DNA of 64,000 bases from an uncultured Dehalococcoidales bacterium (GTDB lineage Bacteria; Chloroflexota; Dehalococcoidia; GIF9; AB-539-J10), in NCBI GenBank assembly GCA_964586515.1, contig CAZPGJ010000001.1:158390-222389 (forward strand), in the 5' to 3' direction. The notes under the pieces were generated by a model that saw only the letters and a program-made list of their open reading frames with translations, did not search any database and was not told the DNA's origin. Positions 1 through 37,727 of this stretch are shown here, piece after piece (within the stretch, counting starts at the first letter, position 1; every line of letters starts with the position of its first letter). The position numbers and the translations under genes were made by a program.

Positions 1-2425
1 CCCCTACGGGATCGACATCTATAGTCCAGCCCCGCGGTAAAGTGAGCTGGGATAATATCCGAGTAGGGTCAGGGCCGCGGATGAAGAGTTGCCAGCGATA
101 CCTGCCCCTGGCTCTAAAGGCAAAAGCCGGCACAGGGCCAATCACACTGAAGTTAGTTATGCCCTCTCGCGCCTTTTCATCAAGAATTAGATGATACACC
201 CTCTCTACTTCATGGCGACATAGCTCTTCATTGGTATGGCTATAAACCAGCCGGACTAATTGGCTAAAAGGGGGATAATTGTATCGGCGGCGATAATCTA
301 TTTCTTTATAATAAAACCCAAGGTAATCATGCTTGGCAGCAGCTTCAATAATGTAGTTATCGGGAGAGTAAGTCTGGATGATAACCTTCCCGGCTTTAAC
401 CCCACGCCCAGCCCTGCCGGCTACCTGACACAGGAGCTGAAAAGTGCGCTCGCTACTTCGGAAATCAGGAAAATTAAGGCCGGTATCAGCATTGATTACC
501 CCGGCCAGGGTCACTTGAGGCAGGTCTAGTCCTTTGGCTATCATCTGGGTGCCAATAAGCACATCTGCCTTGTGGTCACGAAAATTCTTTAACAACTCCT
601 CATGAGCATATCTCCTGGTAATCACATCTCTGTCCCAGCGAAGCAACCTGGCTTCAGGGAAGAAATGCCTTATCTCTTCTTCTACCCTCTGCGTGCCAAT
701 GCCCAGAAGCCTGAGATTGCGCCGAGAACAGCGGGGACAGCTTGGAGATACGGGAATAGAATAGCGGCAGCGATGGCAAATTAGCCTTTTCTCCACTGAA
801 TGGTAAGTTAGCGCTATGGAACAGCGGGGGCAACGAAAGACAAAGCCACAGTTACGACATCGAACAAAGGTAGCTGTGCCCCGACGGTTAAGGAAAAGAA
901 TTATCTGCTCGCCCTGCGCCAGAGTCTCTTCCATGGCAGCTAATAAGGAACGACTAAACAAGCTTGTATTTCCAGCTTTAAGCTCTTCTCTCAAATCTAC
1001 TATGGTTACTTCGGGGAGAGAGGAATAACCACGAGGAGTAATTCTTTCCTTTAGCTCTATAAGTTGATATTCGCCTTGCTGTGCTTTATGGAAACTGCCA
1101 ATGTCAGGGGTTGCACTTCCCAGGATGACAACGGCATCACTGAGTTGAGCCAATTTAATGGCCACGTCGCGGGCATGATAGCGAGGCGATTTATCTTCTT
1201 GCTTGTATGTCCACTCATGCTCTTCATCAATAATGATAAGACCGAGGCTGGGCAAGGGCGCAAATAAGGCGCTCCTCGGCCCGATGACGACATCACAGTT
1301 TCCCTCCATTATCCACTGCCATTCGTCAAACTGCTCACCTGGAGAAAGGCCGCTATGCAGTACTGCCACACGCCCGGGGAAACGACTAGCAAATCTCTCT
1401 ACTGTTTGTTGGGTCAAAGCGATTTCCGGGATAAGGCAAATGCCTCGCTTACCTGCGGCAATAACCTGAGCCAAGGCTCGCAGGTAAATCTCAGTCTTGC
1501 CGCTGCCAGTGACGCCGAAAAGGAGGAAAACCGATGGCTTGCTAGGTTGCCTCGCTTCCTTCACAATGACATCTTGGATCGATTCCCAGGCAGCTTGTTG
1601 AGATGAAGTGAGAACCGGAGGTGGAGAAGTTGTGAGGCTGAGGTGAGATAAGGGGTCACGTCTTATCCTGAGTCTTTCCACTGAGACCAAATGGTGGCTC
1701 TCCAGGGCTTTGATAGTGGCAGGAGAGCAATTGAGACGTTTCCTCAGTTCGCTAATTGAAATAGGTTGAGTCTGCCCGGTCAGAAATTCTAAGAGCTTTG
1801 CCTGTTTATAGGCTCTGGACTTATGCAGGCGAGCCTTCATCACTTCGATTTCCTCTTTGCCAGCTGTTAGCTTAATATAAGGAAGCGTTTTGGGCTTTAC
1901 CTTTGCCTTTTCCAATTCCAGAGTTTGTGTAATTAGCTGATGAGCTAGCAACTGGTCGGTGATTTGCCTGGCTTTTCTTTTGCCAATCGCTTTCTCCAGC
2001 TCAGGCAAGCTTGTCTTCTTTTTCCCTCTCATAATATGAAGGACTTGCTTTTGTTCCGGTGTTAGGGGCAAATCTGCTTGGGAATCCGTTAGCTGAAAGA
2101 AAGTAATAGCCCGCCTCTCAAATCCCGGAGGCAGCATTAAAGCCAGGGCATCGAAAGGAGGGGCAAAATAGTGTTCGCTTATCCACTGGGCAAGCTTTAT
2201 TTGTATCGGGGAAAGCAAAGGAAAGTCAGCAACAATGCCAGCTATTTCCTTGGTTTCTTCAACCGCTGGCTCGTCTGCTAATCGGAGCACAATCCCCTGA
2301 ATGACCCGCGAGCCAAAGGGCACCCATACTGCTTGCCCGGCACTAATTTTGAGCCCCGGCGGTATGGCATAGCAAAAAGTTGACCGGCTCCCCGGTGAAT
2401 TGACTGCCACCTCGGCGTAGTTCAT
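1..2425 (-). CDS. priA: Primosomal protein N' (replication-restart helicase PriA). The 3' end is cut by the window edge; start is the ATG at 2423-2425, overlapping the rplS stop as ATGA.
   Basis: Minus-strand translation is open from 2425 to the window edge with no stop. It carries the PriA N-terminal 3'-DNA-binding region ([12 protein letters not shown]...), helicase motifs (GVTGSGKTEIYL, DEEHE) and the Cys-rich zinc region CRNCG...CPRCS...CHRC...CPRC. It is absent from the ORF track because it lacks an in-window stop. Confidence 0.8.
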   Translation of the reverse strand, partial: MNYAEVAVNSPGSRSTFCYAIPPGLKISAGQAVWVPFGSRVIQGIVLRLADEPAVEETKEIAGIVADFPLLSPIQIKLAQWISEHYFAPPFDALALMLPPGFERRAITFFQLTDSQADLPLTPEQKQVLHIMRGKKKTSLPELEKAIGKRKARQITDQLLAHQLITQTLELEKAKVKPKTLPYIKLTAGKEEIEVMKARLHKSRAYKQAKLLEFLTGQTQPISISELRKRLNCSPATIKALESHHLVSVERLRIRRDPLSHLSLTTSPPPVLTSSQQAAWESIQDVIVKEARQPSKPSVFLLFGVTGSGKTEIYLRALAQVIAAGKRGICLIPEIALTQQTVERFASRFPGRVAVLHSGLSPGEQFDEWQWIMEGNCDVVIGPRSALFAPLPSLGLIIIDEEHEWTYKQEDKSPRYHARDVAIKLAQLSDAVVILGSATPDIGSFHKAQQGEYQLIELKERITPRGYSSLPEVTIVDLREELKAGNTSLFSRSLLAAMEETLAQGEQIILFLNRRGTATFVRCRNCGFVFRCPRCSIALTYHSVEKRLICHRCRYSIPVSPSCPRCSRRNLRLLGIGTQRVEEEIRHFFPEARLLRWDRDVITRRYAHEELLKNFRDHKADVLIGTQMIAKGLDLPQVTLAGVINADTGLNFPDFRSSERTFQLLCQVAGRAGRGVKAGKVIIQTYSPDNYIIEAAAKHDYLGFYYKEIDYRRRYNYPPFSQLVRLVYSHTNEELCRHEVERVYHLILDEKAREGITNFSVIGPVPAFAFRARGRYRWQLFIRGPDPTRILSQLTLPRGWTIDVDPVG

Positions 2426-2826: not shown

Positions 2827-3533
2827 TTCCTTTCCTCATCGCAGATATTGCCCTTCTCCAAGAGGTCAGGGCGTCGTTTCGCCGTACGCAGGATAGCCTG
2901 ACGGCGTCGCCATTGAGCAATTTCGCCATGATTCCCTGAAAGCAAAACCGAGGGGACTGACCAACCTCGATATGACGGAGGTCTGGTATATTGGGGATAC
3001 TCTAAAAGCCCGTTGCTATGAGAATCACTACTGACAGAATCCTGTGAGCCAAGCACTCCCGGTATAAGCCTGACGACAGCATCCACCACAACCAAGGCAG
3101 CTAATTCCCCCCCACTAAGTACATAATCCCCGATACTGATTTCATCAGTAGCCAAGTACTCACACACTCTCTCGTCTAAACCTTCGTAATGGCCACAAAT
3201 CAACATCAGACGAGGGTGGAGGGCGAGTTCCTGAGCCACTGATTGAGAAAAAAGCCTGCCCTGAGGAGTGAGTAATATGATGGGCATCTCACTTACACCA
3301 AGCTGCTGTTTTATCGTCTCTGCTGCCTCAAAGATAGGCTCGGGCTTGAGCACCATACCAGGTCCACCGCCATAGGGATAATCATCCGCAGTATGATGTT
3401 TGTCATGGGTATAGTCGCGAATATCATGAATGACGATGTTCACCAATCCTTGCTCTTGAGCACGCTTAATGATGCTTTGGTTAAGTGGAGAGTCAAACAT
3501 TTCAGGGAAGAGACACAAAATATCAATACGCAT
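2793..3533 (-). CDS. trmD: tRNA (guanine37-N1)-methyltransferase TrmD
   Basis: ORF 2793..3575; conserved N-terminus [13 protein letters not shown] begins at the internal Met (start ~3533). SPOUT-class TrmD motifs present ([15 protein letters not shown]). 3' end overlaps rplS. Confidence 0.8.
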
Positions 3534-3722
3534 GGATTCCCCCAATAAAAACCTTCGAAATGCATATCTTACCATGCAGACGGCGATAAAAGAAAGTCTG
3601 GTGTTTCTCAGCGACTTTGGCTTTCAGAGAGCCGTGTATCCCTTAGACCACATTTAGCACTACTTTTTCTTAATCCCCAACACGAAATTTATTCAAAAAT
3701 TCAAAAAAAGGTGCAAAAAGTA

Positions 3723-9835: not shown

Positions 9836-11265
9836 ATAATGAAGCTATCTTTCTGCTTATCCGTGGCGGCCATATAATTGACCCCAGCCAGGGCATAGAC
9901 CAGGTTGGTGACTTGCTTATTGCTGAGGGCAAGGTTGTGCACTTGGGAGGCGAAATACCAACTGTCATTGCGAGTGACCTGCCCGCCTGCTCGCCGCACG
10001 ACTTCGGCAGGCGAGCCAAGGCTTGGCAGGCGGGAGCGAAGCAATCTCAAGCAATTGATGCCACTGGATTGATTGTCTGCCCCGGATTCGTAGACCTCCA
10101 CTGTCACCTCCGGGAGCCAGGTTTTGAGGATAAGGAAACAATCGCCACAGGGACAAAGGCAGCCGCCATAGGCGGCTTTGCCACTGTCTGCTGTATGCCG
10201 AATACCAATCCTCCCCTCGATAGCTCCTCTGTTCTAGACCTGGTGAAGAGAAATACGAGCAGGGAAAGCTTCATCACGGTTCTTCCCATAGGCTGCATTA
10301 GCAAAGGTAGGAAAGGCAAGGAATTGACCGATATGGCCAGGCTGGCAGAGGCCGGGGTGGTTGCTTTCAGCGACGATGGCGACCCAGTGAAAAGCTCACA
10401 GCTCCTGCGTCGTGCTATGGAACATAGCCGCGACCTGGGCCTGCCAATCATTGACCATTGCGAGGATAGAGCGCTGAGCGACAATGGAATCGTAAACGAA
10501 GGCCAGATATCTGCTAAGTTAGGTCTAAAAGGAATTCCTGCAGCCGCAGAAGAGGTCATTGTGGCGCGTGACTTGATTCTGGCAAAGTTGACCAGGGCCA
10601 GACTTCACATAGCCCATGTCAGCACCAGGGGCTCTGTAGAGCTTATTCGCCATGCCAAGGAAGAAGGGGGTTCAGTAACCGCTGAGGTTACACCCCACCA
10701 CCTGACTCTGACCGAGGACGCAATCACAGGCAGGTCTCACAATGACTCGCTTAATACTAACGCCAAGGTGAACCCACCTCTACGCACCAGCGAGGATATC
10801 GAAGCCTTAATCAGGGGACTCAATAACGGTGTAATCGATGCTATTGCCACCGACCACGCACCTCATACTCTGGCCGATAAAAATTGTGGGCCAGAGCTAG
10901 CCGCTTTTGGCATCAGCGGCTTTGAAACCGCTTTTGGCTGCCTCATGAGCCTGGTGCATGAAGGGAAAATAGACTTGACCATGCTGCTCTCCAAGCTCAC
11001 CTGTGAGCCAGCGAAAGTCATCAGTAGAAATGGTGAACTAGGCACCTTAAAGGCCGGCGCCCCGGCTAATATCAGCATACTCGACCCTGACCGGGAATGG
11101 ATAGTGGATAGCCGCAATTTTGCCTCTAAGGGCAAGAATACTCCTTACGATGGCTATAAGTTTAAGGGCAAGGTGATGGCAACCATAGCAAGCGGCAGGA
11201 TAGTTTACACTGATAACTCCCTTGTCATTGCGAGGAACAAAGTGACAAAGCAATCTCATGGCTAG
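9832..11265 (+). CDS. pyrC: Dihydroorotase carrying an in-frame ~85-bp palindromic repeat insertion near the N-terminus
   Basis: Amidohydrolase motifs (PGFVDLHCHLREPG, DHAPH). Residues ...VIASDLPACSPHDFGRRAKAWQAGAKQSQ... are encoded by the repeat at 9964-10048. Confidence 0.85.
   Translation: MNNEAIFLLIRGGHIIDPSQGIDQVGDLLIAEGKVVHLGGEIPTVIASDLPACSPHDFGRRAKAWQAGAKQSQAIDATGLIVCPGFVDLHCHLREPGFEDKETIATGTKAAAIGGFATVCCMPNTNPPLDSSSVLDLVKRNTSRESFITVLPIGCISKGRKGKELTDMARLAEAGVVAFSDDGDPVKSSQLLRRAMEHSRDLGLPIIDHCEDRALSDNGIVNEGQISAKLGLKGIPAAAEEVIVARDLILAKLTRARLHIAHVSTRGSVELIRHAKEEGGSVTAEVTPHHLTLTEDAITGRSHNDSLNTNAKVNPPLRTSEDIEALIRGLNNGVIDAIATDHAPHTLADKNCGPELAAFGISGFETAFGCLMSLVHEGKIDLTMLLSKLTCEPAKVISRNGELGTLKAGAPANISILDPDREWIVDSRNFASKGKNTPYDGYKFKGKVMATIASGRIVYTDNSLVIARNKVTKQSHG
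9964..10048 (+). repeat. Copy of the ~85-bp GC-rich structured repeat (GTCATTGCGAG...GCGAAGCAATCTC), in frame inside pyrC
   Basis: Near-identical to copies at 16497, 17207 and 26456 and to the inverted copy at ~34843. Internal complementary arms CCCGCCTGC/GCAGGCGGG and CTCGCC/GGCGAG. Confidence 0.85.
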
Positions 11266-16316: not shown

Positions 16317-17195
16317 ATGAAACAAACCTTGTGCTCCGTAACCTCTAATGTGGAAGTCATGCCCGGCATACACCTCATGTGGATTGAGGCACCAGATATA
16401 GCAGTGACGGCTCAGCCGGGGCAATTCATCACAGTGCGGTGTGGAAGTTTTACATTGCGCCGCCCTTTCAGCGTCCACCAAGTTGGGAGTAATAATGTCA
16501 TTGCGAGCGACCTGCCCGCCTGCTCGCCGTACGACTTCGGCAGGCGAGCCAAGGCTTGGCAGGCGGGAGCGAAGCAATCTCAAGTTGCCCTTCTGTTCAA
16601 GGTAACAGGCAAAGGTACCCTCTGGCTGTCGCAGCGACAAATAGGTGAGAGGATAGACATTCTTGGCCCCTTGGGTAAGGGGTTTAGTATCGAACCAAAA
16701 TCTAAACATTTGCTGCTGGTGGCTGGGGGAATTGGCATTGCTCCGCTTGTTTTCTTGATGCAGCATGCTTCATCTCAGCACCAGATAACTTTAATTCACG
16801 GGGCGAGCACTGCTGCTCAACTCTATACCGAGCGCTGTCAGCTAACAGCCATCAGCTATCAGGGAGTTCAATTTATTCCTGTCACCGAAGATGGCACCAT
16901 GGGCCAAAAAGGCATGGCCACGGATATCCTGCCTGATTTCCTAGACTGGGCTGACCAGGTGTATGCCTGCGGGCCTGTAGACATGTACAAGGCAATGGCG
17001 GAGATGTCATTGCGAGCGGAGCGAAGCAATCTCAAACTGAAGAAATGTCAGGTTTCCCTTGAGGTGCGGATGGGGTGTGGTTTTGGAGCTTGCTACGGCT
17101 GCACTGTAAATACCAAGAAAGGCTTAGAACGCATATGCCGTGATGGACCTGTATTTGAGTTGGACGATATCATATGGCAGGAGATAAAGATATGA
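16317..17195 (+). CDS. pyrK: Dihydroorotate dehydrogenase electron-transfer subunit PyrK (FAD/NAD-binding, 2Fe-2S), with two in-frame repeat insertions
   Basis: Ferredoxin-reductase fold motifs (RRPFSV, GGIGIAP) and a C-terminal Cys cluster CGFGACYGC. Repeat copies at 16497-16581 and 17006-17033 are translated in frame. Confidence 0.8.
   Translation: MKQTLCSVTSNVEVMPGIHLMWIEAPDIAVTAQPGQFITVRCGSFTLRRPFSVHQVGSNNVIASDLPACSPYDFGRRAKAWQAGAKQSQVALLFKVTGKGTLWLSQRQIGERIDILGPLGKGFSIEPKSKHLLLVAGGIGIAPLVFLMQHASSQHQITLIHGASTAAQLYTERCQLTAISYQGVQFIPVTEDGTMGQKGMATDILPDFLDWADQVYACGPVDMYKAMAEMSLRAERSNLKLKKCQVSLEVRMGCGFGACYGCTVNTKKGLERICRDGPVFELDDIIWQEIKI
16497..16581 (+). repeat. Full-length copy of the ~85-bp structured repeat, in frame in pyrK
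   Basis: GTCATTGCGAGCGACCTGCCCGCCTGCTCGCCGTACGACTTCGGCAGGCGAGCCAAGGCTTGGCAGGCGGGAGCGAAGCAATCTC. Confidence 0.85.
17006..17033 (+). repeat. Minimal 28-bp copy holding only the two terminal motifs (GTCATTGCGAGCGGAGCGAAGCAATCTC), in frame in pyrK
   Basis: Termini of the family abut with the interior deleted. Confidence 0.6.
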
Positions 17196-17206
17196 CCACC
17201 CACTCC

Positions 17207-17291
17207 GTCATTGCGAGCGACCTGCGCGCCTGCTCGCCGTACGACTTCGGCAGGCGAGCCAAGGCTTGGCAGGCGGGAGCGAAGCAATCTC
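17207..17291 (+). repeat. Full-length copy of the ~85-bp structured repeat, intergenic (12 nt after the pyrK stop)
   Basis: One mismatch (CCTGCGCGCC) relative to the consensus. Confidence 0.85.
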
Positions 17292-25595: not shown

Positions 25596-26907
25596 GGCAG
25601 CTTCGAGAAAGCTGGCGTTCCTTTCTACGGAAGTTAAGAATAAGGCTTTGGTCAATATCGCTGAGGCTCTTATCGCTAGAAAGGACGAAATCTTAGCTGC
25701 CAACAAGATTGATTACGAGGAGGCGAAGGCTTCAGGGATGAATGAAGCCATGCTGGACAGGCTTATGCTGTCGCCATCTCGCCTGGAAGGCATAGCCCAG
25801 GATACAAGAACAGTGGCGGCGCTGCCTGACCCGGTAGGCGAGGTGTTCGAGATGCGGACCTTGCCCAATGGTTTACAGATAAGCAAGAGGCGAGTCCCCC
25901 TGGGAGTCATTGGTGCGATATATGAGAGCCGCCCCAATGTCACCATAGACATATCGAGCCTGTGCCTTAAATCAGGCAACGCCGTCATCCTCCGTGGTGG
26001 CAAGGAAACCATAAATTCGAACAAGGCCTTAGCCAGGGTAGCTCAAGAAGCCTGTGACCAGGCCGGCGTGCCCCAGGGAGCCATCCAGCTTATCGAGTCC
26101 ACAGAACGGACTTTAGTCAATCACATGCTCAAGATGAAGGGAATAATTGACTTGATGATTCCCCGCGGCGGCGCTGGTTTGATAAAGCTTGTCTCGGAGA
26201 ATGCCGCTATGCCGGTAATTACCGGCGGCATCGGTGTCTGCCATACCTATGTGGACAAGAGTGCCGACGTGAACAAAGCGGTTGCCATCGCCTATAATGC
26301 CAAAGTCCAGCGCCCTACCGTGTGCAATGCTCTCGATTGCATTCTGGTCCATAATCAGATTGCTCAAGCTTACCTGCCGGCTATCGCCAAAGAGTGGGCC
26401 AAGGCCGGCGTGGAAATGCACTGCGACAAGCGAGCCTTGGCTATACTTAAGCAATGTCATTGCGAGCGACCTGCCCGCCTGCTCGCCGTACAACTTCGGC
26501 AGGCGAGCCAAGGCTTGGCAGGCGGGAGCGAAGCAACCTCCCCACCCTTAAAGCTAGTCCCGGCCACAGATGAGGACTGGGGGAAGGAATATCTATCCTT
26601 GAAAGCGGCTATTAAAGTGCTTGACTCTCTGGACGAAGCTCTGGAGCACATTGAGAAATATGGCTCGGGGCACTCCGAAGCTATCGTTACCGAAGACCAT
26701 TCGGCAGCAATGCGCTTCCTCAACGAAGTGGATGCCGCCTGTGTTTATGCCAATGCCAGCACTCGGTTCACCGACGGGGGGCAGTTTGGATTAGGCGCTG
26801 AGATAGGCATAAGCACGCAGAAATTTCACGCCCGCGGTCCCATGGCATTGAAAGAGCTAACCAGTTACAAGTGGATTATCGTGGGCAGCGGGCAAGTTCG
26901 GCCTTAG
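25549..26907 (+). CDS. proA: Gamma-glutamyl phosphate reductase with an in-frame ~85-bp repeat insertion
   Basis: Aldehyde-dehydrogenase-fold ProA motifs throughout. Residues CERPARLLAVQLRQASQGLAGGSEATS are encoded by the repeat at 26456-26540. Confidence 0.85.
   Translation: MKSAVKELEEKGKAAKAASRKLAFLSTEVKNKALVNIAEALIARKDEILAANKIDYEEAKASGMNEAMLDRLMLSPSRLEGIAQDTRTVAALPDPVGEVFEMRTLPNGLQISKRRVPLGVIGAIYESRPNVTIDISSLCLKSGNAVILRGGKETINSNKALARVAQEACDQAGVPQGAIQLIESTERTLVNHMLKMKGIIDLMIPRGGAGLIKLVSENAAMPVITGGIGVCHTYVDKSADVNKAVAIAYNAKVQRPTVCNALDCILVHNQIAQAYLPAIAKEWAKAGVEMHCDKRALAILKQCHCERPARLLAVQLRQASQGLAGGSEATSPPLKLVPATDEDWGKEYLSLKAAIKVLDSLDEALEHIEKYGSGHSEAIVTEDHSAAMRFLNEVDAACVYANASTRFTDGGQFGLGAEIGISTQKFHARGPMALKELTSYKWIIVGSGQVRP
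26456..26540 (+). repeat. Full-length copy of the ~85-bp structured repeat, in frame in proA (a different reading frame from the pyrC/pyrK copies)
   Basis: Two substitutions (GTACAACTTCGG, GCAACCTC) relative to the consensus. Confidence 0.85.
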
Positions 26908-27093: not shown

Positions 27094-27972
27094 CTAATCC
27101 TTTTTCTTAGGAAAATCCGGTAAAGGATTGCCAAAATACACTTTGGTATGGGGCCAAGGTATTTCTATACCCTCAGCATCAAAAGCTTTCTTGAGGCGAA
27201 GCCTCAACTCCCCCATCACATCCCACTGCCGTATAGGTTCAACATCCCCCAGAATCTTGATGTCTATTCCAGAGTCACCCAGATTATCAACTCTCAGCAC
27301 CTGGGGAGGACTTTTGATTATCTTACGCCAGTTGTCATCCTCAGCGAGTTCCTTGCCCACTCGGTTTATCACGCTTATGGCGTGGTCAAGGTCGGTGCCA
27401 TAGCCTACCGAGATATTGAGATTGACCCTGGAAAAGCCCCTGGTGAAGTTACTGGCTACTCTGATCTCGCCATTGGGTACATGGTGGACTATGCCATCCA
27501 GGTCACGGAGCACCGTCTTTCTCAAAGTTACTTCCTCCACCAGCCCGGCAATATCAGCCACCCTAGCTACATCACCCACCCTGTACTGGTTTTCCAAAAT
27601 GATGAAGATGCCAGCGATGAGGTCCCTTATCAAGTACTGAGCGCCGAAGCCAATGGCTATGCCAGCGACGCCGAAGCCAGCCAGGACTGGCGCGATGGGT
27701 ATTCCCACCTCATCCAGGACCATAATTATGGCAACTATGACAATGAATACCCGCCCCACCCCTTTGAAGACAGAAAGAAGGGTATTTGTCCTTTTCTCAA
27801 CCGCTGCTTTGCTTTCCTTATACCCCGTTCGGGACACAGTACGGCGTACAATAGGCGGGAGAAACTTATTTAAGGCAAACCACAGCACAGCCGCCACCAC
27901 TGCTATGACAAGGATGCGGATGCCATGGCTTGCTAACCAGGCGACTACAGTGGCCCAACTCAGTTCCGACAT
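27094..27972 (-). CDS. mscS: Small-conductance mechanosensitive channel (MscS family)
   Basis: Three N-terminal TM helices followed by an MscS beta-domain (NQYRVGDVARVADIAGLVEEVTLRKTVLRDLDG). Confidence 0.8.
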   Translation of the reverse strand: MSELSWATVVAWLASHGIRILVIAVVAAVLWFALNKFLPPIVRRTVSRTGYKESKAAVEKRTNTLLSVFKGVGRVFIVIVAIIMVLDEVGIPIAPVLAGFGVAGIAIGFGAQYLIRDLIAGIFIILENQYRVGDVARVADIAGLVEEVTLRKTVLRDLDGIVHHVPNGEIRVASNFTRGFSRVNLNISVGYGTDLDHAISVINRVGKELAEDDNWRKIIKSPPQVLRVDNLGDSGIDIKILGDVEPIRQWDVMGELRLRLKKAFDAEGIEIPWPHTKVYFGNPLPDFPKKKD

Positions 27973-28197
27973 TTCCTACCTCCGTTGCTCTACACTTTCT
28001 ACACAGACTAACCCTATATTATTTTAAACACAATAGAGCCCTCTGTATAGTTGCTGTGCTCGTTCAGAGCCTTGGAACTGAATCAGACGCCCTACTACCC
28101 CTCGATAAGTTACTCGATGTTGGAAACCTGGTCAACAACTTGTGCTGCGTAGGCAAAAACCCCTATCTTAACCTATTACGCAACTATATCATGGCCG

Positions 28198-28419
28198 CTA
28201 ACTTGCCGGAGTTTTGATATTTGCCAGTTTTACTTCAGACAGAGTCAAGATAGTAATAGGCTCGTCTGTTTCACCATAATGAACAGATACTGCTTCCTTA
28301 ATATTTTGGTACAAATCATCCAAAGTGTTGCCCTGAGTAAATATATCCTCTCCTATTCCACGGGCACACCAGAATTCACCGTCGAAGTAAGTTTCTATCT
28401 TTACCAGCATATTTACCAC
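28198..28419 (-). CDS. HicB-like antitoxin-domain protein (UPF0150/DUF1902-like, 73 aa)
   Basis: YFDGEFWCARGIGEDIFTQGNTLDDLYQNIKEAVSVH matches the HicB N-domain pattern (G.y.a.cpe..g...qG.T.eea..n.keA). Confidence 0.5.
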   Translation of the reverse strand: MVNMLVKIETYFDGEFWCARGIGEDIFTQGNTLDDLYQNIKEAVSVHYGETDEPITILTLSEVKLANIKTPAS

Positions 28420-28589
28420 TCTCGAATCTCAACATCAATTATAACAGAAAACTCAAGTGTTTTGCTAAACAATTTGCGATATACAGCATATCATAAAGCA
28501 GGACTAGCCAAATTTAGTTTGCCTTGTTCTGACAATGCGTGGGGGGCGATTTTGCATCCGGTTGGATTCGGAAAGCGCAAGACTGCTTC

Positions 28590-28625
28590 CCGGGCAGGGG
28601 AAATCCGAACTTTTGTGGATTTCTG
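28590..28625. repeat. Conserved ~30-nt motif copy A (CAGGGGAAATCCGAACTTTTGTGGA), lying 3' of the degraded hicA (read on the minus strand)
   Basis: One of three near-identical motifs (28590, 29205, 29912), each just downstream of a minus-strand gene. Confidence 0.6.
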
Positions 28626-28655
28626 CTCATCACGTGCCTACAAAAGGGAAAACCA

Positions 28656-28892
28656 CTATTTATTCTCAAGAATTTTTATGAAATCCTCTTTGCTAAGCTG
28701 TGCGTCCTTTAGAATGCTAGATAAGACTTTTGGGTGCAAAACTCTGCCCTTATGGTAAGGAACTGTGACGCGCTTGCCTGCAGGATTCTTGTAGATTCTG
28801 TGGCTACCACTCTACCGCGATAATTTGAAACCAGCTCTTTCTAATATGCGAATTACTTCATCGGCGGTGACCCTGGGTAGCTTCTCACTCAA
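28656..28892 (-). pseudogene. HicA-family toxin gene with an in-frame TAG stop (minus codon 27, plus coordinates 28812-28814) and a TTG start overlapping the upstream hicB stop
   Basis: Minus-strand translation LSEKLPRVTADEVIRILERAGFKLSR*SGSHRIYKNPAGKRVTVPYHKGRVLHPKVLSSILKDAQL is a clean HicA match; the GSH motif region is interrupted by the stop. Confidence 0.5.
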
Positions 28893-29113
28893 ACCATCAC
28901 CTCTAGAGTAGAAAGACTCACCACCTCTGAGGTTGGAATAGTTTCATTACTGGCTAGCCTGTCCTCGACATGGAGCCTTATAGCATCCTTGATATTTTCC
29001 ATGACCTTTTCAAATGTTTCCCCTTGGGTGTAGCACCCCTGTAATTCAGGGCAATAGGCAAAATAACCATGTTCGTCTTTCTCTACCACCACAACGAAAT
29101 GATACTCAGCCAT
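28889..29113 (-). CDS. HicB-like antitoxin-domain protein (74 aa)
   Basis: HGYFAYCPELQGCYTQGETFEKVMENIKDAIRLHVE matches the HicB N-domain pattern. Confidence 0.6.
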   Translation of the reverse strand: MAEYHFVVVVEKDEHGYFAYCPELQGCYTQGETFEKVMENIKDAIRLHVEDRLASNETIPTSEVVSLSTLEVMV

Positions 29114-29204
29114 TTTCTCAGCCTCCTAATTTGAGTCTTAAGCCCTTGTTCAAAAGGGGCGATTGTCCACTCGTCTATTATAACACACGCTAGTTAGAAG
29201 TATT

Positions 29205-29245
29205 AACCGGACAGGGGAAAATCCGAACTTTTGTGGAGACGCAGG
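29205..29245. repeat. Conserved ~30-nt motif copy B (CAGGGGAAAATCCGAACTTTTGTGGA)
   Basis: Immediately 3' of the HicA-like ORF at 29251-29484 (minus strand). Confidence 0.6.
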
Positions 29246-29250
29246 ACAGC

Positions 29251-29484
29251 TTATAGTAGTTCGGAAAACCCTTCGGGACTTATTGTTGCTTGCCTTAAGA
29301 TGGAACGCAATGTCTTCAAGGCAAGCTCCCGCCGATGGTAAGGGATTGTTACCCTCTGCTTTGTTTCCGGATTCTTAAGAATATAATGGCTTCCTCGGAT
29401 ACGATGTATCTGGAAACCCGCCCGCAAAAGTGCCTCTACACAGTTTGCTTCCCGCTTATCCGTGGAAGCCTCACACTGGAACCT
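29251..29484 (-). pseudogene. HicA-family toxin-like reading frame lacking a canonical start codon (possible pseudogene or non-canonical/coupled initiation)
   Basis: Translation ...ANCVEALLRAGFQIHRIRGSHYILKNPETKQRVTIPYHRRELALKTLRSILRQATISPEGFSELL matches HicA. The frame opens just inside the hicB 3' end; the only in-frame canonical start is a TTG about 20 codons downstream. Confidence 0.45.
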
Positions 29485-29695
29485 CTATAACAGTTTCTTC
29501 GATAGCTTCTTCACTGGGAATTGGTTCGCCGTCTGCCTGCAAGCTTTCTATATAAAGTTCTATAGCTTCCCTGATGTTAGCTAAGGCTTCGTCCCTGGTA
29601 TCGCCCTCACTGATGCATCCAGGCAACAAAGGGGCTGTCACGGTATATCCACCCAGCTCATTAGGCTCAAGAATCACCCGAAACTTTCTTAACAT
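29471..29695 (-). CDS. HicB-like antitoxin-domain protein (74 aa)
   Basis: GGYTVTAPLLPGCISEGDTRDEALANIREAIELYIE matches the HicB N-domain pattern. Confidence 0.6.
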   Translation of the reverse strand: MLRKFRVILEPNELGGYTVTAPLLPGCISEGDTRDEALANIREAIELYIESLQADGEPIPSEEAIEETVIEVPV

Positions 29696-29865
29696 AATTC
29701 CTCACCCCGCTCCCTACGATATTCAAGGCAAAGCTCAAGCACTTCCTTGATATTAGCCAGACACTCCTCATATGTTTCACCCTGAGCCCTTGCTTCTGGA
29801 ATCAAAGGACAACTGGCTATATAGAATCCGTCAGGTGCTTTTCTTATGATAACACTATATTCCAC
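29689..29865 (-). CDS. HicB-like antitoxin-domain protein (58 aa, GTG start); its stop overlaps the start of the next gene (ATGTTAA)
   Basis: Translation VEYSVIIRKAPDGFYIASCPLIPEARAQGETYEECLANIKEVLELCLEYRRERGEELC. Below the 60-aa ORF-track threshold. Confidence 0.4.
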   Translation of the reverse strand: MEYSVIIRKAPDGFYIASCPLIPEARAQGETYEECLANIKEVLELCLEYRRERGEELC

Positions 29866-29911
29866 CCTTGTTTTCCCTAGCTCCGATTATAGCACAATGG
29901 CGGAGGGAGCA

Positions 29912-29950
29912 CCTGTCCAGGGTAGGGGAAAATCCGAACCTGTGTTGACT
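29912..29950. repeat. Conserved ~30-nt motif copy C (TAGGGGAAAATCCGAACCTGTGT), 3' of the 238-aa hypothetical gene
   Basis: Third copy of the motif; more diverged in its 3' half. Confidence 0.5.
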
Positions 29951-29971
29951 TGCAATTTATCGTCACCACTT

Positions 29972-30688
29972 CTATCCGAAAGAATTCGTGCTGCCACTAC
30001 TTGGCGCTTGGCCAAAATCCTGCCATAGGGTATTAACGATTGCAGCAGCGAGTTGAAGCTCTCTATTTTGCACAAGTTGAAACACTCCACGCTCGACATC
30101 CACGGCGAGGTATCCTTGGCTTGAATAATAGGCGAACGCAGCCCTACGACAGATGATACACCAATCTCCATACCGTTGTTCATTCTCCAACGTGCACGGA
30201 ATGTAAGTTTGATATTCCTTGATACGATGAAATGGCTCAACCTTAGAACCGGCCAGCTTCATGAGACTGCGATCCAGAACCACCCAGTTCGTGGGATCAA
30301 GAAACATACGAACTTTGGACAGAAAAGACAAATTAGAGAATTCAGGCATATTTAGATTTTTAAGCGCCTGCAATCCAATACCAGCCAATTGAATCAATAC
30401 TTGAGAAGCTTCCCGGAGACGACCTTCTGTGACGCCATTGCGAAAGTTTGTCACTCTTTTCCAATAATAGGGCCTACTGCGGTGTCCCCAATACAGGATA
30501 TTTGACAACCCATTCTTTACCACAACAGGGTCACCGGATCTCAAATCACCTCTGACAGTTGCCTCTAGCTCGCGCATTGAAGGATAAGAAACCTCCTTAT
30601 TCACCTTGAAGTCATACAACAGCTTTGGGTAAGAGTAACAGCGCATAGCTTTATCTAATTCTCTGATTTGGTCGTTGTTAAGAAACAC
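29972..30688 (-). CDS. Hypothetical protein (238 aa), no recognisable domain
   Basis: Long ORF with ordinary coding composition. Located between hisB and the HicB array and followed by motif copy C. Confidence 0.5.
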   Translation of the reverse strand: MFLNNDQIRELDKAMRCYSYPKLLYDFKVNKEVSYPSMRELEATVRGDLRSGDPVVVKNGLSNILYWGHRSRPYYWKRVTNFRNGVTEGRLREASQVLIQLAGIGLQALKNLNMPEFSNLSFLSKVRMFLDPTNWVVLDRSLMKLAGSKVEPFHRIKEYQTYIPCTLENEQRYGDWCIICRRAAFAYYSSQGYLAVDVERGVFQLVQNRELQLAAAIVNTLWQDFGQAPSSGSTNSFG

Positions 30689-30804
30689 TCTAGTATAAAT
30701 CCTTAACCCATAAGCTCAGGTGATTCTGTATATATCTAGTTCTGAGATGCCATAATCGCTTCCCAAGCATGATTTGAGATTAGTTTCATATTCAATATCT
30801 TTCC

Positions 30805-31395
30805 CTATCCCTCGATAACCTCTTTGGTGCTGGGAATCCTGCCCAGGATGCGCTCGTCAATGCGGGTGGCTGAGTCCAGGGCTCGGGCCAGGGCTTTGAA
30901 TAAGGCTTCGGCTTTGTGGTGGTCGTTGATGCCGCTGAGCACTTTGGCATGGAGGTTGATTTTGGCTTCGGAGGCAAAGGAGACCAGAAAATGGCGGACT
31001 AAATCAGCATCCAGGTCACCTATGCCGGCTTCGTTAAAGTCTACCTCAACTACGCTGTAGACCCTGCCCCCAATATCCACTGCTACCTCTGCCAGAGCTT
31101 CATCCATAGGCACAACAGCATGGGCCATACGAACGATGCCCTGCTTTTTCCCTAATGCCTGGTTAAAAGCCTTGCCCAGCGAGATAGCCACATCCTCGAC
31201 TACGTGGTGCTGGTCGGGACCAGAGGCTGAGATTTTTATGTCAAATACTCCATGCTGAGCTAGCTGGCTAAGGAGGTGGTCGAACATCCTTATGCCGGTG
31301 GTGATTTGAAATTGTCCGCTGCCGTCAATGTTGAGCTCTACCCTGACATTTGTTTCGGCAGTCTCACGAGCTACTTTTGCTTTTCTTTCAGCCAT
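30805..31395 (-). CDS. hisB: Imidazoleglycerol-phosphate dehydratase
   Basis: IGPD metal-binding motifs (DxHHxxE...) present: GPDQHHVVEDVAISLG, HLLSQLAQHG. Confidence 0.85.
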   Translation of the reverse strand: MAERKAKVARETAETNVRVELNIDGSGQFQITTGIRMFDHLLSQLAQHGVFDIKISASGPDQHHVVEDVAISLGKAFNQALGKKQGIVRMAHAVVPMDEALAEVAVDIGGRVYSVVEVDFNEAGIGDLDADLVRHFLVSFASEAKINLHAKVLSGINDHHKAEALFKALARALDSATRIDERILGRIPSTKEVIEG

Positions 31396-34081: not shown

Positions 34082-35557
34082 TCATGATAGCCCCGCTCGC
34101 AATTTCTGTGTCAGAAACTTCATTTTCTCTTTTTTATCGGAAGATGCCAGACTATTTTTGCTGGCAATCAGACATGCCGAAGATTGGAAGAGCACATCAA
34201 TAATCTTCAATTTGTGCTGTTTGAGAGTCTTCCCTGTCTGGACATTGTCAATAAGCATGTCGGCATCCTCTGGTAAAAAAGCCTCGCTCGCCCCCCAGGT
34301 TGGGATTAGCTTGTAGGGGTTAATGTGATTGTCCCGAAGATACCTGTCGGCAATATTTATGTACTCCGAAGCTACTTTTAGAGGAGCAAACTTGCCGCTC
34401 TGAACAAGCGACCGCAATTCATCAACGTCGGCCGCAGGCATTTCCTGGCTCACGGCAGCGACAATTTTGACGGTGCCAAAGCCGAGAGCAAACAATTTCT
34501 TCACCGGGCTCGAGGGGAAGCGATAGAGGTGTTCCCGCAGCCAATCCTCACCGGTTATGGCTAAGTCGAAATTGCTATTAGCCACTTGCAGAGGCATATC
34601 CTGGGGCCTGATTACTTTAATGCCCAGCCAGTCTAAATCAGCGGAGGGCCGGCGGCTCACTACTTCTTCAGAATAGCCCTGAAGTGCCAGCCCGGCTTGC
34701 TTCAAAAACTGCGCAGCAGGTGCTTGCTGGTGCCCATCAGGCAAAGCCAGGTTGATTTCTTTGGCTGGCCACGAGGAGCGAGGAATCTTTAGTTTCTTAC
34801 AGATATCAAGCTCATGTTCTATTGGTGTCTGTGGCCCCGCCTGCCAAGCCTCGGCTCGCCTGCCGAAGTCGTACGGCGAGCAGGCGGGCAGGTCAGCGCT
34901 AAGCTGGGAGTCAAAACACACCAATATCTGGCTCAAATCCTTGTTCTCCAGGCTTTCTCGATTGGCTATTACAAAGGCCGTAACGGGGAGTATCTTTTCG
35001 AGGGGAATTAAACCTTGAGCTGCTATATGCGCTCCGCTCTTTCCCCAGAGCACCGCCAAATCGGCATTTTCCGGGGGATAAGCCTCAGTAGCTCCCCACA
35101 CCGGGAAAATCCTGAACCTTTTCATCCTGAGATTTAAGGCAAAAGCCTCAGCCAGATTAGGATACTCACTCACTATACGATAGCTTCTGCGGGCTGATAA
35201 CTCATTGAGACTGGTTATCCCAGCTTGAGCACTGGCAACCACGTGTATACCACCTTCGCCGTAATTTAGACTCGCTATTTTTACCAGGGCCCCAGCGGGA
35301 TATTTCACCAGAAATTCTTCAATCCAATCCAATCCACAAATTCCCAGGTCATAATTCCCGACAGCCACCTGGATGGGAATATCTTTTTCCTGAAGTATTT
35401 TGGCGGAAAGACTGGGAAACCTTGCCGAGCGCAGGCGATATTGCTTTGTTTTATCGCCATAACCATCAAATCCCACGTCTATCTGGGCAAGCAAGCTAGC
35501 TGTCGGCGATAGAAACCTGCCTTTAGGGAGAGCGAGTTTAATAGATTGATATTTCAT
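34082..35557 (-). CDS. hisG: ATP phosphoribosyltransferase, tandemly duplicated HisG-like protein (two HisG-type halves, 491 aa) with an in-frame repeat insertion between the halves
   Basis: The first half (LALPKGRFL...VAVGNYDLGICGLDW) and second half (INLALPDGHQQ...VANSNFDLAITGEDW) both match HisG. Residues ADLPACSPYDFGRRAEAWQAG come from the inverted repeat copy at ~34843-34904. Confidence 0.7.
   Translation of the reverse strand: MKYQSIKLALPKGRFLSPTASLLAQIDVGFDGYGDKTKQYRLRSARFPSLSAKILQEKDIPIQVAVGNYDLGICGLDWIEEFLVKYPAGALVKIASLNYGEGGIHVVASAQAGITSLNELSARRSYRIVSEYPNLAEAFALNLRMKRFRIFPVWGATEAYPPENADLAVLWGKSGAHIAAQGLIPLEKILPVTAFVIANRESLENKDLSQILVCFDSQLSADLPACSPYDFGRRAEAWQAGPQTPIEHELDICKKLKIPRSSWPAKEINLALPDGHQQAPAAQFLKQAGLALQGYSEEVVSRRPSADLDWLGIKVIRPQDMPLQVANSNFDLAITGEDWLREHLYRFPSSPVKKLFALGFGTVKIVAAVSQEMPAADVDELRSLVQSGKFAPLKVASEYINIADRYLRDNHINPYKLIPTWGASEAFLPEDADMLIDNVQTGKTLKQHKLKIIDVLFQSSACLIASKNSLASSDKKEKMKFLTQKLRAGLS
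34843..34904 (-). repeat. Core of the ~85-bp structured repeat in inverted orientation (termini degenerated), in frame in hisG
   Basis: Plus strand reads CCCGCCTGCCAAGCCTCGGCTCGCCTGCCGAAGTCGTACGGCGAGCAGGCGGGCAGGTC, the reverse complement of the repeat core. Confidence 0.75.
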
Positions 35558-35734: not shown

Positions 35735-36418
35735 TTATGTGCTGTACCCCTTGTTTTTCTCAATATCCACATTACTTATAGCAACATTAGGAAAGCAAAC
35801 TGCCATCATTCCCATCAGTACAATCAGGTAGCAATAAGACTGAAAGCAAATAAAGTCACATAGCTCAGGATCATTAATGATTTTTCCCACAGAGTAGCCC
35901 AATCTCGTATCATCAAGTTGAACTATGTTCCATTGTGAACCAACAGGGTCACCATGCACAATGTGACCAAAGGTTTCGCATATCTGCTTCGCTGTTGTGA
36001 TGTCGGCATTGTCGCTCATTGTTTCGAGCATTTTTGTGAGGCTTGGTCTCTCCCGCAATTGCCAACCATTTTGCCAAACTTCAACTTCATCAGGATAGGT
36101 GTTGAGATATGAAATGATGGCAGCACGTTCGATCAGCGGTCGCATAAGCACTAAGGCTCCAAAAAGGTAACCCTGCCGAATGAGTTCCCGGATTGTCAAA
36201 GCAAGGTTGATTCCCTGAGGGATGATCTGGCAAGCTGCTTTTTGAAGGTCCGATAACTCAGCTTGGTGGGTGTAAGCGGCAATATCTGCATTTGCCTCCA
36301 AGCAAGATATGATAACCTGATCGAATTGAAAAACCGACTCTCTGCCTAGATAAGGCTCATTTGATGGCAAATACACCGCTTCATGATTATTTTTTTTGTT
36401 TTCTAGGGGACTATTCAC
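35735..36418 (-). CDS. Hypothetical protein (227 aa), lower-GC gene between hisG and the hisZ-like gene
   Basis: Long ORF; no recognisable family. Confidence 0.4.
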   Translation of the reverse strand: MNSPLENKKNNHEAVYLPSNEPYLGRESVFQFDQVIISCLEANADIAAYTHQAELSDLQKAACQIIPQGINLALTIRELIRQGYLFGALVLMRPLIERAAIISYLNTYPDEVEVWQNGWQLRERPSLTKMLETMSDNADITTAKQICETFGHIVHGDPVGSQWNIVQLDDTRLGYSVGKIINDPELCDFICFQSYCYLIVLMGMMAVCFPNVAISNVDIEKNKGYST

Positions 36419-36488: not shown

Positions 36489-37727
36489 TCATTTCGCGCC
36501 TATTATGTCAATAATATCTGCTGGGGAGGTTACGTTTCGCTGTCGTCCTTGCTTACAGTCCTTGAGCCTGAACGGCTTCTTGGCGGAAACCGAGACAACC
36601 CAGCGATAGGTACTCTCTTCCTGACCACCTAAGCCAAGCTCCGTGGCATATCCGGCGTCACGAAGCGATTCCGCCACAGCAAAGCACTTCTTTACTATTT
36701 CGGGAGTCGATTCCTTACCTTTAACTAAAATTCCACGTTCGCCCTTTTTCTCTTTCTCCAGCGGCAGCAATTTCATTATAGGGTCCACATATAGGGCAAA
36801 TCCGCAGGCAGGGACGTCCTTGCCATTCATAAGGGGCACAAGCTTATCATATCTTCCTCCGCCACCTATCTTTTCCCCAGCAGCCAGGAACTGAAAACAG
36901 ATTCCAGTATAATACTCAAAACCATGTATGGCCGCGATATCGATTTCATAGCTGCAACCCAGGTTATCCAGTAATGTGGTAATGCTGAGGAGGTCCTCCA
37001 GGCTGGACTTGAAGTCCTGCGACGCTTTGGGGAATGAAGCTCTGACATTGTGTAGAAAGCTGCTCGATTTCCCCTTGAGGCCCAATAACGCAGCCATGAG
37101 CCTGTCGATTTCGGGGCTAGTGGATTTCGCCCTGGTCAATGCTTGCCAATTTCCTTCTAAAATGCGGTTCGTCATCTTAGCTTCCTCAGCGGGGCTGAGC
37201 TTAAACTCCTTGAGCAGCGCCTTCACCAAGCCAGCATGGGACACTTGCAGCCCGACATTGCTGATGCCAAGGCTGCGGATAACCTCTTCAGCCAGCAGAA
37301 CTATCTCCACATCCGGGGCAGATTGGGCACCACCGAAAAACTCAGCACCACATTGCCAGCGCTCCCTGTTCTCTTTTCCCGTTCCCTCGAAAGCAAAGAT
37401 ATTAGTCACATAGAAAAGCCTGGCTAATTCTTGTCCGCTCAGATTGTCGATGTAGAGCCTGGCCACAGGAATAGTACCATCTGGCCTCAAGACGACTCGC
37501 TCACCGCTCCAGCCATCCCAATCGAGAAAGGAATATACCTTGCTTAACATGCTCGGCGTGAGTGTTCCCGTAGCTGTAAACAAATAGAGGTATTCTAAAG
37601 TTGGCGTCCTCACCTCCTGGTAGCCCCAGTTACGACAACAAGTCCGGAAGGTATCTTCAATACGACGAAAGCGCAACATGTCCTCGGGGAGCAAGTCCTG
37701 CATTCCCTTACACTTTTGGTTTTTCAT
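36489..37727 (-). CDS. hisZ: Histidyl-tRNA-synthetase-like protein with degenerate class-II motif 2; probable ATP-PRT regulatory subunit HisZ (or a HisS paralog)
   Basis: HisRS-like N-terminus (MQDLLPEDMLRF...GYQEVRTPTLE) and motif-3-like GGGRYDKLV. Motif 2 lacks the conserved FRYE/arginine (FAFEGTGKENRERWQ). Located next to the his operon. Confidence 0.5.
   Translation of the reverse strand: MKNQKCKGMQDLLPEDMLRFRRIEDTFRTCCRNWGYQEVRTPTLEYLYLFTATGTLTPSMLSKVYSFLDWDGWSGERVVLRPDGTIPVARLYIDNLSGQELARLFYVTNIFAFEGTGKENRERWQCGAEFFGGAQSAPDVEIVLLAEEVIRSLGISNVGLQVSHAGLVKALLKEFKLSPAEEAKMTNRILEGNWQALTRAKSTSPEIDRLMAALLGLKGKSSSFLHNVRASFPKASQDFKSSLEDLLSITTLLDNLGCSYEIDIAAIHGFEYYTGICFQFLAAGEKIGGGGRYDKLVPLMNGKDVPACGFALYVDPIMKLLPLEKEKKGERGILVKGKESTPEIVKKCFAVAESLRDAGYATELGLGGQEESTYRWVVSVSAKKPFRLKDCKQGRQRNVTSPADIIDIIGAK

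Follow-up and report, generated by a model that had tools for sequence, protein, structure and literature searches.

Organization of the array between hisB and mscS

The 64,000-nt stretch of contig CAZPGJ010000001.1 from an uncultured Dehalococcoidales bacterium that was analyzed here (the window; coordinates count from its first letter) contains an array of small gene cassettes, approximately 2.6 kb long, downstream of hisB. All of the array genes are on the minus strand. Read in that direction, the order is hisB (30805-31395, the upstream border), a 238-amino-acid (aa) ORFan (29972-30688), hicB0, hicB1, hicA1, hicB2, hicA2, hicB3, a hicA3 remnant, and mscS (27094-27972, the downstream border, minus strand like hisB). 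We designated the genes between the borders as five cassettes, one ORFan and four hicBA toxin-antitoxin modules, with copies of a conserved repeat among them. An initial annotation of the window had listed four hicB-like open reading frames (ORFs), two HicA-like frames, and three copies of the repeat motif. The four hicB-like ORFs lie where it had placed them and the rest of that inventory stands, but it overlooked hicA3 and a decayed copy of the repeat directly after the hisB stop codon (30709-30769).

The 238-aa ORFan lies between that decayed site and the next repeat copy and has no match in Pfam, NCBIfam, or PADLOC. Because the decayed site precedes it, the ORFan is itself regarded as a cassette. 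Relatives have other genes at this position (203, 227, 228, 255, and 367 aa). The hicBA modules are built alike, with their own TGnTATAAT promoter, a short HicB of 58 to 74 aa, and a hicA start codon overlapping the hicB stop codon. Cassette 0 has the extended -10 element TGTGCTATAAT (29886-29896), conserved in related loci L004, L005, and L014, and the element TCTGTTATAAT (28438-28448) is found in the sequence upstream of hicB3. The best promoter-like site in the region is that of cassette 2 (29177-29206), TTAATA-18-TATAAT with a TG extension (10 of 12 matches), which is conserved in L049 and L008. The G+C content of the array is 44.2% compared with a mean of 48.5% for the window, the sixth lowest among 307 windows of 2.6 kb. 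The array is of foreign origin and was acquired horizontally, and its low G+C content counts in favor of this conclusion.

All four toxin genes are inactivated

Searches seeded with the repeat motif retrieved related contigs, numbered here as L loci, some of which carry the same cassettes with intact toxin genes. Alignment with intact orthologues in these related Dehalococcoidia contigs defined the lesion in each toxin gene of the window. All four toxin genes are inactivated, by four independent types of lesion, and all of the antitoxin ORFs are open. The hicA1 and hicA2 frames both match the Pfam HicA_toxin family (PF07927; E=1.8e-16 for the body of hicA1 and E=2.4e-20 for hicA2 with its glutamine restored), as do the intact orthologues of hicA0 (E=2.8e-19) and hicA3 (E=1e-11). 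The GSH histidine motif is present in HicA sequences as RGSH or SGSH.

The hicA1 pseudogene (29251-29474) had been described as a frame beginning at 29484 with no canonical start. That description was wrong: a normal GTG start at 29474 overlaps the hicB1 stop codon, and the gene is disrupted by an insertion of 2 nt, TG, at 29439-29442, which generates a TAG at 29436-29438 (codon 13) and shifts the HicA body into another frame. The corresponding site in the intact genes of L006, L068, and L069 reads ...AAGCAAAC-TGTAGAGGCA..., to which the TG is added in the window. The hicA2 pseudogene (28656-28892) has a TTG start overlapping the hicB2 stop codon, as do all four orthologues. Its codon 27 is TAG (28812-28814) versus CAG (Gln) in L008, L047, L060, and L049, and this stop codon stands four codons ahead of the conserved histidine of the GSH motif.

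The other two toxin genes were lost by deletion. In L004, L005, and L014 a 70-aa hicB0 is followed by its own 77-aa HicA. Three-way alignments of the window with these loci and with L006 and L063 revealed that homology to the former ends at a GAGGAA sequence (29698-29703), after which comes the cassette 1 ribosome-binding region as found in the latter. This switch in homology indicates that a deletion at the microhomology took the 3' end of hicB0, the whole of hicA0, one repeat, and the cassette 1 promoter. Thus, hicB0 lacks its 3' end and has been joined to hicB1 by the deletion that removed the fourth toxin. Behind the hicB3 orthologues comes an 80-aa HicA, for example in L011 (the source of the Pfam match above), L060, L108, L026, L058, and L117. 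In the window, alignment with L011, L060, and L127 showed only a hicA3 remnant (28163-28220), with the ATG start changed to ATA and an internal deletion of about 195 nt that joined some 14 N-terminal codons to the last 5 or so. The hicA3 gene has decayed independently in L127, L049, and L048. A different route of decay of the same cassette was observed in L006 (approximately 3520-3640, oriented) and L080 (approximately 2537-2660, oriented), in which the hicB3-hicA3 cassette beside mscS is nearly all deleted and the last 20 or so nucleotides of hicA3 are left after the repeat.

Assemblies from three separate runs (SRR14802572-74) were 100% identical over 4.5 kb that included the lesions, and assembly or sequencing error was therefore rejected as their source. 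The gene caller used for these assemblies called none of the toxin genes. When HicB1, HicB2, and HicB3 were looked up as exact sequences, nothing but these three runs came back, so that no strains of the same species with intact toxin genes were found by this route. Among the loci listed, 26 of approximately 36 hicA matches in relatives are intact. This census was used for hicA only; for hicB it was too coarse, since genes with divergent C termini counted as disrupted.

It is highly improbable that the hicA frames function by recoding, with read-through of the hicA2 TAG and a programmed frameshift in hicA1 keeping toxin production low. Apart from their lesions, both frames are well conserved (Pfam E=2e-16 and 2e-20), and the lesions were reproduced in the three assemblies. 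However, the orthologues have a plain CAG and no TG insertion, no slippery site of the X XXY YYZ type was seen at the hicA1 shift, and TAG terminates 12 of the 46 long ORFs in the window, including hisB, mscS, and proA. TAG is an ordinary stop codon here, and neither a change of genetic code nor read-through, a check for which had been suggested, is supported. The other two toxins of the array were removed by deletions, which points to selection against toxin activity rather than regulation. One observation does weigh against complete loss. A HicA1 of 58 aa, truncated at the N terminus and without most of the first helix, could start at a TTG at 29427 that has GAGG 5 nt upstream. The hicA1 gene may keep some activity; its complete loss is what we infer.

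The proposal that toxins were lost with antitoxins retained was thus borne out more strongly than it had been put, with four of four toxins lost and four of four HicB ORFs open. Toxin genes would decay first because loss of the antitoxin would be lethal while the toxin is still active. The surviving HicB proteins might be recent relics, or they might be kept to neutralize related HicA toxins. Toxin decay in the array is a clean but ordinary example of this process. Its value is that of a compact natural case for which intact orthologues are at hand for repair, so that anti-addiction, the protection by an orphan HicB against incoming HicA toxins, can be tested directly.

Short HicB antitoxins in Class 2 gene order

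HicB1 (29471-29695, 74 aa) and HicB2 (28889-29113, 74 aa) are intact and pass the Pfam threshold for HicB_lk_antitox (PF15919; E=1.8e-14 and 2.3e-11), covering only positions 1 to 65 of the 123-position profile. Because they match the N-terminal half of the profile only, they are short HicB proteins with no DNA-binding domain. HicB0 (29689-29865, 58 aa) is slightly under the UPF0150 cut-off (24.8 versus 27.3 bits), and its full-length 70-aa orthologue is above it. HicB3 is also intact (28198-28410, 70 aa). Its upper bound had been given as 28419, but the true start is the ATG at 28410, and the 70-aa product is also reported by gene callers. The Pfam match of HicB3 is weak (E=0.057); its orthologues, combined in a profile, matched a HicB0/1/2 profile with an hhalign probability of 92% (E=5.9e-7). 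The orthologues are 72 to 96% identical in 11 loci, and an intact HicA comes next. HicB1 is about 95% identical to its L006 orthologue. The HicB paralogues of the array are only 33 to 37% identical to one another.

The initial annotation regarded antitoxin before toxin as a reversal of the usual order. This was not borne out. In the Gerdes survey (bioRxiv 10.1101/2023.12.08.570793), Class 2 modules are defined by hicB upstream of hicA, and Classes 1 and 2 are the most prevalent; Class 2 HicB has 63 to 103 codons and a partial RNase H-like domain but no DNA-binding domain. The hicB-hicA order with a short HicB is that of prevalent Class 2 and therefore ordinary. In addition to these two features, the modules of the window and their orthologues share with Class 2 a HicA of about 73 to 80 aa with the GSH histidine and the overlap of start and stop codons. 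Unlike Class 2 hicBA in general, none of the four window toxin genes is intact, so the modules are relics of the family; a deletion has joined two of the antitoxin genes in one operon; and each module forms a bounded cassette within an array.

Cassette borders fall at a repeat found in many Dehalococcoidia contigs

The motif is present in three minus-strand copies (28590-28619, 29207-29237, and 29918-29948), all inside the array and none elsewhere in the 64 kb, and one of them follows the unrelated 238-aa ORFan, as first reported. Three or more matches occurred in none of 100 shuffles. An nhmmer profile of the repeat, made without the window copies and then run on the window, scored copies A, B, and C at E=8e-20, 2e-6, and 1e-6. 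Copy A (28544-28627; E=7.8e-20) is full length and was aligned with the 3' ends and flanks of tRNA-Asn genes; copy B (29207-29238) and copy C (29913-29962, core GTTCGGATTTTCCCCT) consist of the left half only. The decayed copy after hisB is matched at E=3.1e-4 over profile positions 41 to 102. A weak fifth match at 35085-35122 (E=0.015), inside hisG, is probably due to chance.

The suggested search for the motif elsewhere was made with two patterns. A degenerate 22- to 23-nt pattern found 7 loci in species-representative genomes, all of them Dehalococcoidia or Chloroflexi metagenome-assembled genomes, where approximately 2 chance matches were expected by our own calculation across all phyla. 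A 19-nt pattern found the motif in at least 120 metagenome contigs. A stricter pattern had no match in IMG/VR and a looser one had a single chance match in a phage coding sequence, and a viral origin was rejected. An opposite-strand small ORF across the motif ("GKIRTF...") was also rejected, having no start codon and variant differences that are not synonymous.

The repeat counts that follow rest on the matches listed. Among these, all 209 of 209 profile matches are co-oriented, and 62 loci have 2 to 5 copies. Fuzzy-matched copies among the matches listed are spaced 364 to 1500 bp apart with one exception of 3226 bp, and most copies have the end of a same-strand ORF just upstream. Genes flanking the listed matches fall into 146 clusters, mostly singletons, the largest being HicA (21 immediately upstream of the repeat) and HicB (19 immediately downstream), followed by ParE/RelE.

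Comparison among loci places the borders of the cassettes at the repeat. For the hicB2A2 cassette, identity with L008, L049, L060, and L047 rises from the random level (30 to 45%) to 85 to 98% exactly at the motif, and for L008 and L047 it drops again at the next motif. The hicB0A0 cassette type is preceded by at least six different upstream genes. The cassettes of the array have orthologues with approximately 83 to 95% identity in other genomes, in different contexts.

About 30 copies (L017, L019, L023, L024, L033, L035, L068, L091, and others) have an upstream variant, CAAGACAAAACTGATGyCTAGCTTGCGT-N18-TATAATGAGCCAGACATCGCAAAAAG, in which TTGCGT-N18-TATAAT resembles a sigma-70 promoter directed into the motif. 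In L128 (mscS), L031, and L049 this promoter-like block stands directly before genes, without the motif.

Relationship of the repeat to tRNA-Asn and to the 3' flank of hisB

The full repeat aligns with the T-loop-to-3'-end portion of tRNA-Asn(GTT) together with approximately 60 nt of its native downstream flank (alignment A3). About one-third of the repeat copies have an extension, ...CGGGGAGCAAATTTGCCTTTTCCGAACCTGA.AGATACAAAATTGCCCGAACTT, and this extension is also the tRNA-Asn(GTT) 3' end plus downstream flank in L041, L074, and L109. The repeat profile matched tRNA-Asn 3' ends at E=4e-12 to 3.5e-7. Copy A consists of the left half, the tRNA-Asn-like core, and the extension resembling the downstream flank. 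The extension sequence also follows the hisB stop codon in a dozen loci, preceded there by TTTCGAATCC in place of the motif. The decayed copy at 30709-30769 has the right half only, which is a core like the 3' strand of the tRNA-Asn acceptor stem and a segment like the downstream flank; its counterparts in alignment are tRNA-Asn 3' ends and the sites that flank hisB in other loci.

Arrays begin at these two kinds of site. In six loci (L024, L027, L028, L041, L074, and L109) the array begins at an intact tRNA-Asn gene that is the last gene of a Phe-Gly-Leu-Gln-Asn cluster; in L074 it is followed by three cassettes, each with a repeat behind it. In at least 12 loci, examined for synteny after hisB as had been recommended, arrays begin there, and the gene at the first position varies.

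The 3 to 8 nt between the conserved CCCC and GGGG (TTTTCCCC to GGGGAGC) are hypervariable (GGCTC, CACGC, TGCTC, TATGC, and others). They lie where the cassette-side and tRNA-side halves meet and thus may mark a crossover or a spacer. Two further observations concern the surroundings of arrays in other loci. In L007 (approximately 3050-3215, oriented) a fragment of the proA C terminus (…KELTSYKWIIFGSGQVRP) abuts a 31-codon hisB 3' fragment and a hisB-flank site, and a full proA lies 1.5 kb further on, which points to rearrangement or duplication at the array border. In L023 (original 41-395, minus strand) a transfer-messenger RNA gene with the tag GEPELVLAA is co-oriented with a two-copy array and lies about 2.5 kb downstream of it.

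Proposed origin of the array

Our best reading, to which we assign a probability of roughly 0.7, is that the locus is a serial accretion array of mini-islands that lack an integrase and are bounded by tRNA-derived attachment (att) repeats. The repeats would be att junctions left by serial site-specific insertion, for which the site in the window would be the tRNA-Asn-like fragment right after hisB. The suggestion that the motif is a cassette-associated recombination site is thus the best explanation of the breaks in homology at the motif, its wide occurrence, and its origin from a tRNA-Asn 3' end. The cassettes have flanking repeats of the attL/attR type and no integration or transfer genes, as in cis-mobilizable elements (CIMEs). 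Cassettes without a recombinase would move as discrete units by means of an integrase encoded elsewhere, in the manner of CIME cis- or trans-mobilization. The presence of the same compact cassettes in many contexts suggests movement as small units, although we put the odds that such units move with a recombinase supplied in trans at somewhat below even.

Several points weigh against serial site-specific insertion. The main gap in a recombination model is that no recombinase was found beside any array when the 64-kb window and 127 related loci were searched by tblastn with six queries (IntI1, XerC, lambda Int, gamma-delta resolvase, phiC31 integrase, and IS608 TnpA); the matches, in L093, L054, and L105, were remote or weak only. 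Neither an excised circle nor an empty site was observed as direct evidence of movement. ARAGORN finds no tRNA in the window, where a decayed tRNA-like fragment is all that anchors the array. In its left half, AAAAGTTCGGATTTTCCCC, the repeat is similar to the T-loop region, but this half is not a plain tRNA copy and a functional tRNA could not be restored by it; the crossover point is therefore undefined. The metagenome set was gathered by an exact 19-nt pattern, so that conservation of the 19-nt core is partly a matter of ascertainment; conservation of the flanks is independent of the pattern used in collection. Finally, the repeat might be transcribed in the approximately 30 copies with the promoter-like variant, and it may have a role at the RNA level.

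A broader proposal, put forward tentatively and with considerable doubt, is that a gene-cassette system not described before, like an integron in its operation but not an integron, exists in Dehalococcoidia. It would comprise cassettes of 0.4 to 1.5 kb, mostly Class 2 hicBA or other toxin-antitoxin modules and ORFans, often with their own promoter, that are captured, stacked, and exchanged at tRNA-Asn-derived sites (at tRNA-Asn and after hisB) by a recombinase acting in trans. If this is true, the 19-nt core AAAAGTTCGGATTTYCCCC would serve as a universal probe with which the pool of accessory cassettes of the lineage could be recovered from metagenomes. Many of these cassettes are retrieved by the core in a simple pattern search, as attC-targeted methods do for integrons. 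Dehalococcoidia genomes are small and streamlined, and new genes, such as those for reductive dehalogenases, enter at tRNA and ssrA sites. Finer-grained exchange of cassettes at tRNA-Asn-type sites would, if it occurs, be a second layer of gene acquisition in these bacteria.

Alternative explanations for the repeat

The possibility that the repeat acts as RNA fared best among the alternatives but is unlikely. In this role it would set cassette transcripts apart, as a leader, a stabilizer, or a tRNA-like signal for punctuation or processing, with a T-loop-like segment and an acceptor-stem-like CCCC/GGGG hairpin, and its genomic distribution would follow from its place within the cassette transcription unit. 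The strict co-orientation with flanking genes is consistent with such a role, as are the promoter-like variant aimed into about 30 copies and the short hairpin, whose loop varies while its stems are conserved and which is similar to the acceptor stem of tRNA-Asn. However, RNAalifold gave -6.9 kcal/mol for the repeat with a covariation term of +0.13 and compensatory change in 1 of 10 pairs, so that folding of the motif as RNA, which had been advised, yielded no structure supported by covariation. Rfam had no match at E<=5 for the repeat region (three sub-threshold chance matches were all to eukaryotic families). No terminator-like site was found in the region, and no T-run follows the motif; the suggestion that it is a terminator fails accordingly. 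Furthermore, a role as RNA alone would leave the homology breaks at the repeat and the starts of arrays at tRNA-Asn unexplained.

It is very unlikely that the repeat is a dispersed intergenic element of the repetitive extragenic palindromic (REP) or miniature inverted-repeat transposable element (MITE) type with no role in cassette movement. It is short, noncoding, and intergenic, with many metagenome copies, and the window does contain another dispersed repeat, of 82 nt. Within the 64 kb, however, the motif is confined to the array and to a single orientation. Neighboring copies lie 364 to 1500 bp apart with accessory genes between them, there are no terminal inverted repeats, and the arrays have two specific anchor points, tRNA-Asn and the 3' end of hisB.

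An integron cassette array lacking its integrase (a cluster of attC sites lacking integron-integrase, or CALIN), in which the motif would be part of attC and IntI would be encoded elsewhere, is highly doubtful despite several resemblances. Like CALINs (Cury et al. 2016, PMC4889954), the arrays have co-oriented small cassettes, mostly promoter-adjacent, of single genes or toxin-antitoxin modules, a conserved recombination-type site after each, many ORFans, and no integrase nearby. ORFans and toxin-antitoxin modules are also typical of chromosomal integrons, and integrons have been reported in Chloroflexi (PMC4889954). The initial annotation saw no integron here, and this view was upheld. IntI1 had no tblastn match in the window, and its sole match among the related loci, in L093, fits XerC better and is about 6 kb from a repeat. 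No inverted repeats of at least 14 nt were found in the array region, and single-stranded DNA folding of 138 repeat copies was no better than that of shuffles (mean z -0.2 to -0.7). An attC-like hairpin was rejected on this lack of excess structure and on inspection by eye of arm pairings in several copies. The sole recurring complementary pair, 5'-GTTCGGA...TCCGAAC-3', has a polarity opposite to that of R''(RYYYAAC)...R'(GTTRRRY), and GTTCGGA does not fit GTTRRRY. Unlike the sites of CALINs, the site here has no R or L boxes; it is sequence conserved and aligns with a tRNA 3' end rather than being a cassette-specific palindrome, and many of the cassettes carry a promoter of their own.

That one hicBA unit was recently duplicated in tandem at this locus, with the motif as duplicated intergenic DNA or a shared operator, is barely credible: three intergenic regions share the motif and regions A and B share a second short block, but the HicB paralogues are too divergent from one another (33 to 37% identity) and too close to orthologues elsewhere (approximately 83 to 95%), they have no DNA-binding domain with which to bind an operator, and the motif is found behind the unrelated ORFan and next to 146 gene clusters in at least 120 contigs, a wide occurrence that contradicts an explanation by local duplication alone.

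Other features of the window

An unrelated repeat of about 82 nt (TCATTGCGAGCGACC...GGGAGCGAAGCAACC) is present in five copies with 96 to 99% identity (9963-10044, 16494-16577, 17207-17287, 26453-26536, and 34836-34894). One copy is within the proA ORF, which has 452 aa here versus 424 to 430 aa in relatives, and one is within the hisG ORF. This repeat looks like a MITE/REP-like element tolerated in frame in housekeeping genes. The hisG gene (34082-35557, minus strand; 491 aa) has two HisG-matching stretches, with the 82-nt repeat in the linker between them, and thus looks like a tandem-domain ATP phosphoribosyltransferase. Between hisG and hisZ (36489-37727) in the his operon is a 227-aa ORFan (35735-36418, minus strand) with no NCBIfam or PADLOC match and no flanking repeat of the tRNA-Asn type.

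Comparison with known integrative elements

One close parallel to the array comes from the same class of bacteria. Dehalococcoides has tandem islands whose borders are repeated fragments from the 3' ends of tRNA and ssrA genes (PMC2764846). In these islands (McMurdie et al. 2009, 2011; PMC2764846, PMC3146451), as in the array, direct repeats copy the 3' end of a small-RNA gene, several units are stacked at one site, and the G+C content is low. The published islands are larger and lie at tRNA-Ala, -Arg, -Val, or -Lys genes or at ssrA, and some, such as those with bvcA and vcrA, carry an integrase of their own, whereas here the source is tRNA-Asn and the units, 0.4 to 1.5 kb long, hold one or two genes and lack a recombinase. 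The repeat described here also differs in running about 60 nt beyond the tRNA and in its diverged left half, and there is a second hot spot after hisB.

CIMEs and tandem accretion are known in Firmicutes (Pavlovic 2004; Bellanger 2011; reviewed in PMC5704250). Like CIMEs (PMC5704250), the cassettes keep repeats of the attL and attR type, lack integration and transfer genes, and are stacked at a target gene's 3' end. CIMEs depend on the recombinase of another element, and the cassettes would share that dependence. In contrast to the cassettes, CIMEs are decayed integrative and conjugative or integrative and mobilizable elements of several kilobases in Firmicutes for which mobilization has been shown experimentally. 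The motif arrays thus extend to small cassettes the island arrays bounded by tRNA fragments that are already known in this class.

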